Shown here: positions 59,941 to 61,380 of the stretch, one piece after another
Position numbering within the stretch: the stretch's first letter is position 1
Layout: the number at the start of each line of letters is the position of its first letter
DNA from: Acidobacteriota bacterium
Lineage (GTDB): Bacteria > Acidobacteriota > Vicinamibacteria > Vicinamibacterales > 2-12-FULL-66-21
Reading direction: 5' to 3'
Length of the DNA: 64,000 bases
NCBI GenBank assembly: GCA_031393955.1
Contig: JANMWI010000082.1
Location: forward strand, 26,064 to 90,063
Translations under genes and position numbers: made by a program
Notes under the pieces: model-generated
Database searches by the model: none
Told to the model about the DNA's origin: nothing
The model's input: the letters and a program-made list of their open reading frames with translations, nothing else

Positions 59941-60044
59941 GTGCCTAGGTGCCAGGGTGCCACGGTGCCACGGTGCCACGGTGCCACGGTGCCAAGGGGG
60001 CCATGGTGCCGGGTGCCAAGGGGGCCATGGTGCCACGTGCCGGG
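59941..60044. repeat. tandem 7-9 bp GTGCC-unit array (GGTGCCAC consensus)
   Basis: The units read gtgcctag gtgccagg gtgccacg x4 gtgccaag ggggccatg gtgccgg gtgccaag ggggccatg gtgccac gtgccggg. Together they fill almost the whole gap between the MBL stop (59921) and the convergent stop at 60048. Confidence 0.9.
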
Positions 60045-60047
60045 ATG

Positions 60048-61286
60048 CTAGCGGACGAAGGGTTCGCGGGGGTCGTCCGGATCGGCCCAGCGGTCGTTCG
60101 GGACGAGCGGCGCCCAGCCGGGGCGTGCCGGGTCCTGGTCGTAGGGGTAGGGGCCGAGCTCTTTGTAGAGCTCGGCGTACTGGGCGAGCTTCGCGCGGTC
60201 GAGCGTGACGCCGAGGCCTGGGCCGTCCGGGACGCGGATCGTGCCCCCCTCGTACTTCATCAGGCCGCCTTCGATGATGTCGTCGGTGAGGTGATGGTAG
60301 TGGGCGTCGGCGGCGAACGACAGGTTCGGCACGACCGCGCCGAGGTGCAGCATCGTGGCGAGCTGGATGCCGAGCTCGCCGGATGAGTGGACCGCGACGC
60401 CGAGCTGGAACGTGTCGCAGACGCCCGCCGCCTTGACGCACGGACGGATGCCGCCCCAGAAGGTGGTGTCGAGCAGGATGACGTCGACCGCGCGGTTCAG
60501 CACGTTGGCGGCGAGCTGTTCGAAGTTGACGACCACCGTGTTGGTGGCCAGCGGCATGCGCAGCTTCTCGCGGGCGTGGCGCATGCCGGTCAGGCCGAAC
60601 ACCGGGTCCTCGAGGTAGTCGTTGTCGAGATCCTCGATCGCGCGGCCGAAGCGGATCGCCTGCTCCGTCGTCCAGACCGCGTTTGGATCGAAGCGGAACG
60701 AATCGCCGGGCAGCGACTCGGCGACGGCCCGGTAGCATTCGAGGTCGTGCGCCGGCGGAAACACCCCGCCCTTCAGCTTGTGCGAGCGGAACCCGTGCTT
60801 CGCCTTCAGTTCCCGTGCGCACGCGACCAGGTCGTCCGGCGTCCGGATCGCTCCCTCGCCGTCGGCTGACGCGTAGCGATAGAACAGGTAGGAGGCGAAC
60901 GCGACCCGGTCGCGGACCCGGCCGCCGAGGATGTCGCAGACCGGCACTCCCCACGCCTGGCCGAGGAGATCGAGGCAGGCAAACTCGAGCGCGGCGACGA
61001 CCTGCGTGCGGTTGTTATAGAGCGACGCGGTCGGATTGGCGAGCAGGAACCGCATGTCCTCGAGCAGCGCCGGATCCCGCCCGACGAGCGAGGTCTTCAG
61101 CGACATCACCGTCGCCAGCGCCGATTCCCCGCCTCCGCCCATCTCCCCCAGCCCGATCAGCCCGGTATCGGTTTCGATCTCGACAATCGTCCGTACGAAC
61201 CGCCCCCAATGGCACCCGTTCGCATGCCGCAAGGGCGCCTCGAGCGGCACCGTCACCGTCGTCGCCCGCACGTCACTGATCTTCAT
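60048..61286 (-). CDS. enolase-superfamily enzyme, glucarate-dehydratase-like
   Basis: ORF 60048..61286. It reads [52 protein letters not shown], then [20 protein letters not shown] and the C-terminal enolase barrel. Confidence 0.85.
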
Positions 61287-61296
61287 CGCTCACTCA

Positions 61297-61380
61297 TTGG
61301 CACCCTGGCACTCTGGCACCCTTGGCACCCTTGGCACCTTGGCACCTTGGCACCTTGGCACTCTTGGCCCCCCGGCACTT
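61297..61380. repeat. tandem 8-9 bp TGGCACC-unit array (reverse complement of the 59941-60044 units)
   Basis: The units read ttggcaccc tggcactc tggcaccct tggcaccct tggcacct x3 tggcactct tggcccccc ggcactttt. GGCAC starts fall at 61299, 61307, 61315, 61324, 61333, 61341, 61349, 61357 and 61374. The array fills the 94-nt gap between ATG 61286 and the upstream stop at 61381. Confidence 0.9.

Follow-up and report, generated by a model that had tools for sequence, protein, structure and literature searches.

The 64,000-nt stretch of contig JANMWI010000082.1 analyzed here (Acidobacteriota bacterium, assembly GCA_031393955.1; hereafter the window) carries two short-unit tandem repeat arrays, termed A and B, that lie on either side of a single gene of the enolase superfamily and whose units are inverted relative to each other. 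We consider it very probable that these arrays are two separate members of a dispersed, non-coding repeat family, (GGTGCCAR[G])n with a period of 8-9 nt, that is characteristic of Acidobacteriota. The overall reading that we favor, with some reservation, is that the members of this family fill intergenic spacers in the sense orientation behind stop codons and that the bracketing of the enolase gene is a by-product. Indeed, the inverted bracket is more likely to follow from the convergence of two upstream genes than to be a device built around the gene. The family is an example, specific to one lineage, of the long simple sequence repeats (LSSR) built from 5-11-nt units; this class is already known, whereas the GGTGCCA family is new, literature searches for the repeat sequence or for tandem repeats in Acidobacteria or Vicinamibacteria having found no description of it.

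Both arrays were recognized by Tandem Repeats Finder (TRF) with a period of 8, array A at positions 59948-60041 (11.8 copies, 81% matches, consensus GGTGCCAC) and array B at positions 61298-61378 (9.8 copies, 85% matches, consensus TGGCACCC). Direct counting yielded 11 GTGCC and 2 GGGCC variant units in the former and 9 GGCAC units and 1 GGCCC unit in the latter, in agreement with the two inverted non-coding arrays, their units and their boundaries as described in an initial annotation of this DNA. The higher-order duplicate that had been noted in the 3′ flank of the gene was found again as two exact copies of the 22-nt sequence GTGCCAAGGGGGCCATGGTGCC, at 59989-60010 and 60013-60034. The dominant units of the two arrays are unlike, being GGTGCCAC in array A and GGTGCCAAG in array B (CCAC versus CCAAG). 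A two-unit pattern allowing up to two mismatches matched the window 18 times, compared to 3.65 +/- 1.74 times in shuffled sequences, none of 100 of which attained 18 matches, and 15 of the 18 matches fell inside the two arrays. Besides these two, TRF revealed no non-coding array of the GGTGCCA type in the 64-kb window, as had been the impression by eye. An AGGACA hexamer repeat at 63598-63639 (6.2 copies) is coding and unrelated to the arrays; it lies within the open reading frame (ORF) of a PD40/tricorn-like protease and encodes a KDKDKGKDKDK linker.

Array A fills the convergent spacer between the stop codons of a metallo-β-lactamase (MBL)-fold gene and of the enolase-family gene (Table 1) and constitutes the 3′ trailer of the MBL-fold gene, in the sense orientation and 19 nt past its stop. 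Array B, the first unit of which lies 2 nt past the TAA (61381-61383) of p146, an ORF of 146 codons, and which comes to within 11 nt of the enolase ATG at 61286, is both the 3′ trailer of p146 and the intercistronic leader of the enolase-family gene. The two arrays were unchanged in an independent ENA contig, L001 (L-numbers denote comparison loci or contigs throughout), from a strain 99.68% identical to the window (16 differences in 4967 positions). Two further sequencing runs supplied Logan contigs that entered the arrays and ended inside them, giving no copy number. The organism is represented in ERZ27314299, SRR20217174 and SRR20217210. Since the arrays were identical in L001 and reached by the contigs of two more runs, they are not assembly artefacts. 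With head-to-tail units in the range of 1-11 nt, a length beyond chance and a non-coding location, arrays A and B are simple sequence repeats of the LSSR kind.

Table 1. Arrays and adjoining genes in the window, and the p146/enolase spacer in the window and its closest relatives.
Feature	Position or length	Strand	Content	Downstream of enolase gene
Array A	59941..60044	+	~13 GGTGCCA(N) units; + strand reads GGTGCC	
Array B	61297..61380	-	~10 GGTGCCAA(G) units; - strand reads GGTGCC	
Higher-order duplicate within array A	59989..60034	+	GTGCCAAGGGGGCCATGGTGCC twice, with GGGGGCCA variant unit	
Enolase-superfamily, acid-sugar-dehydratase-like gene (412 aa)	60048..61286	-	Pfam MR_MLE_N + MR_MLE_C	
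p146 (146-aa ORF)	61381..61821	-	GC3 0.90; no Pfam or NCBIfam match; upstream of and co-directional with enolase gene	
MBL-fold hydrolase gene	58938..59921	+	Pfam Lactamase_B; convergent on enolase gene	
p146/enolase spacer, L215	9 nt (2699-2707)		TAAaaggggctcGTG (AAGGGGCTC), no array	GCACGT-type units x5, co-directional alpha/beta-hydrolase gene
p146/enolase spacer, window	94 nt		(GGTGCCAAG)n	array A, convergent MBL-fold gene
p146/enolase spacer, L227	134 nt		~60 nt unique, then (GGTGCCAAG/AGTGCCAAA) x8	(GCACGTA/GCACCTG)n, convergent OEP gene
p146/enolase spacer, L218 / L217	143 / 161 nt		(GGTGCCAGG) x9, then (GCACGTR) x7	(CAACGTG)3 (CCCTGGCAC)3.5, convergent OEP gene
p146/enolase spacer, L219 / L220	264 / 293 nt (501-764 / 1405-1697)		(GGGRYTC) ~35-40 units	ordinary hairpin, convergent ECF (extracytoplasmic function) sigma-factor gene

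A scan built around the GGTGCCA unit, in which one genome per prokaryotic species was searched for three consecutive units at 8-9-nt spacing, returned at least 119 loci. Period-8 or mixed 8/9 arrays, the spacing of which is not that of an ordinary in-frame coding repeat, were found at at least 22 loci, in unrelated spacers of at least 14 Acidobacteriota metagenome-assembled genomes (MAGs) assigned to Vicinamibacterales, to Solibacteraceae or to no classified group. Among the matches listed, the family was seen most often in Vicinamibacterales MAGs, GGTGCCA arrays occurred at two to four loci per MAG, 6 period-8 or mixed 8/9 loci lay outside Acidobacteriota, and the longest array (L003) consisted of 30 units, copy numbers ranging from 3 to 30. 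Pure period-9 matches from Streptomyces and other groups were located mostly within ORFs, consistent with Gly-rich coding repeats. The family, which may also be written (GGTGCCAN)n, most commonly displayed the units GTGCCAGG, GTGCCAAG, GTGCCAAGG and GTGCCACG, and the genes adjoining its arrays had unrelated functions (AccD, TatD, SDR, DHDPS, radical SAM and others). The genomic surroundings of GGTGCC arrays often contained, in nearby spacers, additional 7-8-nt arrays of unrelated units, of which there were 16 in 276 kb; loci outside Acidobacteriota had 10 in 612 kb, and those of enolase orthologues 2 in 530 kb. Short-unit arrays thus cluster locally or by genome; a phylum uniformly rich in 7/8-nt arrays was not supported, the enolase-orthologue loci being array-poor, with only 3 good arrays in 530 kb.

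Several matches deserve separate mention. L050, one of the 6 loci outside Acidobacteriota and labelled as a Flavobacteriales MAG, has a G+C content of 68% and a 28-copy AGGGTGCG array, fits Flavobacteriales poorly and is probably a mis-binned contig; L062, a Rhodocyclaceae MAG from the same study, may be another. Period-8 arrays were present on 10 viral contigs as well. In L208 (11534-11625) and L209, the viral material including an IMG/VR contig, a composite array was seen in which (CCAGGGTG)7 is directly followed by (GGCTCCCC)4, while the viral loci L203, L204, L207 and L210 have in common a 3-unit GGTGCCAC run, despite a flank divergence of 4-8%, that may be coding.

The position and orientation of the arrays were analyzed with our own gene calls, which were based on the G+C content of third codon positions (GC3) and are crude; the counts that follow refer to the matches listed. 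With these calls, 50 of 51 period-8 or mixed arrays were intergenic. Tandem, convergent and divergent spacers all held arrays, which typically filled the whole spacer, and many began 1-22 nt past a stop codon, as in TAGggtgccagg, TAAggtgccaagg and TGAaagggtgcc. Where the nearest stop codon was no more than 60 nt away, 16 non-redundant arrays were in the sense orientation, such that the RNA of the upstream gene reads GGUGCCA, versus 2 in the antisense orientation. Orientation relative to the downstream start codon was split evenly, 10 to 10. Close inverted pairs were encountered five times (L016, L041, L052 twice, L078), each with the polarity 5′-(GGTGCC)n..(GGCACC)n-3′ of the window pair, and made up a small share of the family, most arrays of which were unpaired. 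Arrays A and B are mutually inverted because each lies in the sense orientation behind a different gene, the MBL-fold gene on the plus strand and p146 on the minus strand, and because these two genes converge. The proposal that inverted pairing around one gene forms a device was thus not borne out, the same 8-mer arrays being present at many unrelated intergenic sites of Acidobacteriota, mostly in the absence of a gene bracketed by inverted partners.

The two strands of the arrays differ sharply in their predicted RNA folding. Across 21 family arrays, the GGUGCC strand folded better than dinucleotide shuffles (mean z -2.5, negative in 19/21), while the GGCACC strand of the same arrays folded worse (mean z +3.0, positive in 21/21). 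GGUGCC RNA is unusually structured because it is self-complementary by way of two G.U pairs, a property that GGCACC does not have. The full spacer of array A gave -66.6 kcal/mol (z -1.25) for the sense RNA versus -45.9 kcal/mol (z +1.6) for the antisense RNA, and that of array B -36.8 kcal/mol (z about -1.4) for the GGUGCC strand versus -17.2 kcal/mol (z +3.8) for its complement.

Taken together with the post-stop position of the arrays, this asymmetry can be accommodated in a model in which arrays would arise from short local seeds through slipped-strand mispairing or unequal exchange, would be homogenized by the same processes, and would lengthen up to the edge of coding sequence. The GGUGCC orientation would be retained in transcribed spacers, where hairpins stacked in the transcript past the upstream gene could act as a 3′-end barrier or terminator similar to the repetitive extragenic palindromic (REP) elements discussed below; worded alternatively, the C-rich, unstructured orientation might be harmful and selected against. 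The enolase gene would have come to sit between arrays A and B following a local change in gene order. The hairpin-barrier function, reached by analogy, is the more tentative part of this model, and we see it as possible rather than likely. Unlikely, in our view, is the broader proposal that (GGUGCCAR)n is a functional RNA element throughout Acidobacteriota, placed behind stop codons as hairpin stacks or factor platforms that would set 3′ ends, operon polarity or mRNA stability, with facing arrays such as those of the window and L217/L218 clamping transcript ends.

A related possibility is that the arrays serve as binding sites of a conserved sequence-specific factor, which could be a protein that recognizes GGUGCCA in RNA or one that binds or methylates DNA at GGYRCC. 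That one unit recurs over deep acidobacterial lineages in spite of fast array turnover, and that the orientation bias is confined to the GGTGCCA family, could be understood on these grounds, and analogous roles have been proposed for the TAACTGA repeats (PMC4679880) and the paired octamers of Geobacter (PMC2700814). On the other hand, no candidate factor was identified, copy numbers vary from 3 to 30 in every type of spacer, and a period of 8 bp is out of step with the helical repeat of DNA; moreover, any apparent dominance of the unit among all arrays comes from a scan that targeted this very unit. By analogy, such a factor might exist, but we consider it quite improbable.

The bracket itself could be read as a gene-specific RNA device, in which the leader (GGUGCCAA)n and the trailer (GUGGCACC)n of one p146-enolase transcript would pair over 1.24 kb, thereby closing the ends of the mRNA and modulating enolase translation or decay. 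Such pairing had been put forward in the initial annotation, and the leader and trailer of the hypothetical transcript did cofold better than dinucleotide shuffles (-146.8 versus -99.3 +/- 5.1 kcal/mol), with a pairing gain of -71.8 versus -18.9 in shuffles. Consistent with a paired structure, the bracket of L217/L218 displays matching variants (leader GGTGCCAGGG, trailer CCCTGGCACC) in the mirrored order A1 A2 gene A2′ A1′. Complementarity between leader and trailer is, however, automatic for any inverted pair of GGTGCCA arrays. Downstream of the enolase gene, L227 has no clean GGCACC array, scattered GCACC units among GCACGTA units being all that is seen, L215 and the L219 group are devoid of a complementary partner, and none of 80 loci with more distant enolase orthologues (75-87% amino acid identity) has an array. 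Furthermore, each of the two window arrays follows the post-stop rule for a different upstream gene, and their dominant units differ. Pairing of the 5′ and 3′ ends is therefore possible on thermodynamic grounds with little comparative support, and we regard a device of this kind as very unlikely.

The p146/enolase spacer in the closest relatives (91-92% amino acid and 82-84% nucleotide identity) displays turnover of arrays. The p146-to-enolase order was common to all members of this clade and the spacer differed in each lineage, its length varying from 9 to 293 nt (Table 1). Orthologues of array B were present in L217/L218 and L227, and the inverted bracket, GGTGCC upstream and GGCACC downstream, was kept in L217/L218 (92% amino acid identity). 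In L217, both spacers consist of a stop codon, a GGTGCC array and a GCACGT array in this order, in the sense of the respective upstream gene (p146 or the OEP gene). The GGGGGCCA variant unit opens the p146 trailer right behind the TAA in both the window and L217, which indicates common descent of the two arrays followed by concerted change of the remaining units. The arrays at this locus are shown to be old and to have persisted over ~17% nucleotide divergence with changes in unit variant, copy number and length, and to have been lost or replaced in sister lineages. The 9-nt spacer of L215 contains GGGGCTC once, this being the unit amplified in the L219 group, and this pair of loci points to the putative birth of an array by amplification of a local seed. 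L225, a member of the L219-type set of contigs with an identical enolase protein (1-200, 1440-1510), has another upstream gene end, GGGGATC-type units and, in place of the hairpin of its siblings, a downstream (GCACGTA)n, which indicates a probable rearrangement or recombination within or beside arrays.

Variation of this kind raises the question of a contingency or rheostat locus, at which the copy number of array B would tune enolase expression as proposed by analogy with the heptanucleotide repeats of the Haemophilus hmw genes. In its favor, the upstream array differs among 8 contigs from 8 samples that all encode one and the same enolase protein (P0007), its length being for instance 264 versus 293 nt, although assembly of repeats from short reads may contribute to such differences and make them partly artefactual. 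A 7-9-nt array was likewise found within ~150 nt upstream of the enolase gene in 7 of the 80 distant orthologues, with unrelated units (CACGTCG x18, CTTTTCC, AGTTTGT, CATTTGT, GCCCGGGTC, AGTAGGC and, in L135, TGGCACC in the opposite orientation). However, the arrays of the window and L001 are identical despite the 16 differences between the two strains, the imperfection of the units (81-85% matches) lessens slippage, and array A is not so placed relative to a start codon. A rheostat thus appears rather improbable. The variable-number tandem repeat (VNTR)-like length variation that had been suggested was supported among the relatives, in the spacer lengths as well as in the contigs with identical enolase, and was not seen in the nearest strain.

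Gene order around the enolase gene has changed as well. In L126, L131 and L125, the order is tricorn<- ->enolase->X->p146-> <-MBL, and an ordinary hairpin separates p146 from the MBL-fold gene; in the window, from which X is absent, the order is tricorn<- ->p146->[B]->enolase->[A]<-MBL. From this comparison the neighborhood is judged to have been reshuffled repeatedly, the MBL-fold gene being convergent on p146 in the L126-type arrangement and on the enolase gene in the window. In L217, L218 and L227, it is the OEP efflux gene that converges on the enolase gene, whereas the window has the MBL-fold gene between the OEP gene and the array (57562-59921). Arrays as direct by-products of rearrangement were rejected: L215 has the p146/enolase junction free of an array, which implies that the array arose after the junction, and the conserved tricorn/enolase junction of L122, L126 and L131 carries varying arrays.

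The fact that both window arrays occupy junctions not found in the arrangement of L126, L131 and L125 would also suit a DNA-level element, be it a recombination substrate, a switch operating through inversion or deletion, or the ends of a foldback-like mobile cassette. Among the matches listed, single ordinary genes were bracketed by arrays at 7 other loci (HI0933-like, TerB/DUF697, GFO_IDH_MocA, AccD, DHDPS, SDR and VWA-domain genes), and all close inverted pairs have one polarity. The units on either side of those 7 genes were, however, usually different and unrelated. At the locus under study, the enolase gene was co-directional with p146 in 8/8 related contigs showing p146, and no inverted variant was seen among them; together with the absence of a recombinase or transposase domain from the nine neighboring genes scanned (52145-64000), this argues against an inverton and against the inversion or deletion of the gene that had been envisaged. 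The array-free junction of L215 is equally at odds with such an element. Nor was a target-site duplication found, the outer flanks GAAGGGTCAC and TTTTAACTCC sharing no direct repeat, and the unit variants of the two arms differ, as a result of which a miniature inverted-repeat transposable element (MITE), a transposon with terminal inverted repeats and a foldback element were all rejected. We attach very little probability to a DNA-level element.

Several observations weigh against our favored reading of spacer-filling, sense-oriented arrays and an incidental bracket. The orientation rule is derived from 18 cases and from gene calls that are GC3-based and crude. No bias toward a G-rich or structured sense strand is seen in the arrays that the same genomes have of other units (3 versus 7 in our own tally), from which it follows that any functional rule would be specific to the GGTGCCA family; by the same tally, other-unit arrays beside stop codons were C-rich on the sense strand in 7/10 cases, and avoidance of Rho was rejected as a general rule. 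In the window itself, the full spacers reach z scores of only -1.25 and -1.38. Scans for intrinsic terminators detected none in the two arrays, behind which there is no U-tract or T-run either, and the arrays were not classed as intrinsic terminators. Neutral slippage would not obviously lead to recurrence of the unit in deep acidobacterial lineages, nor to the L217/L218 bracket with its matching variants; both would allow for a pairing function or a factor that recognizes the sequence. Finally, the chance that the only two arrays in 64 kb should be adjacent is ~0.045, which makes a local cause beyond the generic rule likely. Given this adjacency and the L217/L218 bracket, a locus-specific role is possible, with low probability.

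Other searches for known signals were negative. Scans for sigma-70 promoters and intrinsic terminators detected no site in or beside the arrays. A sigma-54 reading of TGGCAC was dismissed by inspection, the spacing to any TTGC being wrong and the resulting transcription running antisense into the upstream gene. Searching positions 59700-62100 against Rfam by E-value produced a single chance match to mir-4428 (E = 4.2), and scanning the whole window at gathering thresholds produced none, so that no curated covariance model matched in the window. An ARAGORN prediction of tRNA-Pro (CGG) beside array A (60043-60116, +) overlaps the conserved 3′ end of the enolase coding sequence on the opposite strand, had no Rfam tRNA match even at E <= 10, and is probably a false positive.

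In terms of likely mode of action, the nearest known systems are REP elements and bacterial interspersed mosaic elements (BIMEs). The REP unit is an imperfect palindrome of 20-40 nt that is spread by the RAYT transposase. Like the arrays described here, REPs and BIMEs are dispersed and intergenic, often follow stop codons, often form inverted pairs, yield hairpins in the upstream transcript and are associated with rearrangements; the unit in the present family, in contrast, is of 8 nt, is not palindromic as DNA and is amplified in place, and the features that define REPs are absent. CRISPR arrays, with repeats of 23-50 nt and unique spacers, do not compare with contiguous units of 8-9 nt.

The initial annotation's statement that no described class fits was too strong, both LSSR with 5-11-nt units and repeats of the cyanobacterial short tandemly repeated repetitive (STRR) type having been described. 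LSSR with units of 5-11 nt occur in some prokaryotic genomes, heptamers being the commonest (Mrazek et al. 2007, as summarized in PMC4679880). In the account given in that summary, LSSR resemble the present arrays in their head-to-tail 7-9-nt units, their beyond-chance length, their non-coding location when the unit is not a multiple of 3, their patchy phylogeny and their ascription to polymerase slippage. Acidobacteriota are not among the LSSR-rich genomes named in the PMC4679880 summary, and what distinguishes the present case is that one unit family recurs in many genomes with a transcription-linked orientation. In the case of the STRR heptamers of cyanobacteria and the intergenic TAACTGA repeats of Beggiatoaceae, Cyanobacteria and Bacteroidetes (PMC4679880), a lineage likewise has one particular short motif in tandem copies at numerous intergenic sites, often by gene ends, with an unproven function for which a role at the RNA level has been proposed (PMC4679880). 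Those units are, however, of 7 nt and richer in A+T, the TAACTGA repeats being found mostly in 2-6 copies just before start codons (PMC4679880), whereas our arrays have 8-9-nt units in 3-30 copies behind stop codons with a strand rule and are not heptanucleotide repeats as STRR are.

Geobacter metallireducens likewise has tandem octamers at dozens of sites in inverted pairs of variable spacing, its 'global regulator binding sites' comprising 3-5 tandem hepta- or octanucleotides, mostly in opposite-strand pairs at a variable distance (PMC2700814). The Geobacter sites differ in having a small, fixed copy number, conserved flanks and insertion sequence (IS) elements at fixed distances (PMC2700814), while the arrays studied here vary widely in length and are mostly unpaired. 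Phase-variable repeats in promoters and 5′ untranslated regions, such as the 7-bp repeats upstream of the Haemophilus hmw genes (PMC12721329), share with array B a 7-8-nt tandem repeat between an upstream signal and a start codon and possibly a copy number that varies between related strains; array B, in contrast, has imperfect units, is identical in the nearest strain and belongs to a soil bacterium, not to a pathogen adapted to its host.

On present evidence, then, the arrays do not amount to a new kind of genetic element. In soil, Acidobacteriota are an abundant phylum; they are hard to work with genetically, and to our knowledge almost nothing is known of their non-coding DNA. The GGTGCCA family, with its simple position and strand rule, its extreme folding asymmetry and its fast turnover (9-293 nt in one orthologous spacer), may offer a tractable handle on transcript 3′-end formation and spacer evolution in this phylum, and its arrays a ready-made marker for strain typing. 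The arrays also carry a warning for assembly in that short-read contigs break within them.

The bracketed gene had been described as glucarate-dehydratase-like. Its membership of the enolase superfamily was upheld by its MR_MLE domains; glucarate dehydratase was indeed the top NCBIfam match, but at 161.9 bits, far under the 828.7-bit cut-off. The gene has 7992 relatives at E <= 1e-100, the nearest named homologues being from MAGs of Acidobacteriota (92%) and Vicinamibacterales (88%). In L215, L217-L220 and L227, the enolase gene is immediately preceded by a homologue of p146. A 144-aa ORF on the minus strand (61818-62252) that has no family match and overlaps the 5′ part of the plus-strand PD40/tricorn-like gene is probably not a real gene, in which case p146 would open its transcription unit; the PD40/tricorn-like protease gene itself is divergent from p146. 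On the other side, the MBL-fold gene is preceded by a resistance-nodulation-division (RND) efflux operon (HlyD-type, AcrB and OEP genes). The G+C content of the window is 67-73%.

Two further features were noticed in distant orthologues. In L137 (~1510-1650), inverted heptamer arrays of an unrelated unit, GTTTGTA x3 and ACAAAC(C/T) x3, flank a canonical hairpin (aaaggccggc..gccggccttt). In addition, a -10-like box (TATACT, TATGCT or TAAGAT) is located 8-15 nt before the enolase start in L123, L124, L132-L135, L137 and L138, with arrays immediately upstream, and its proximity to the start codon suggests that these orthologues may be expressed from leaderless or very short-leader mRNAs.

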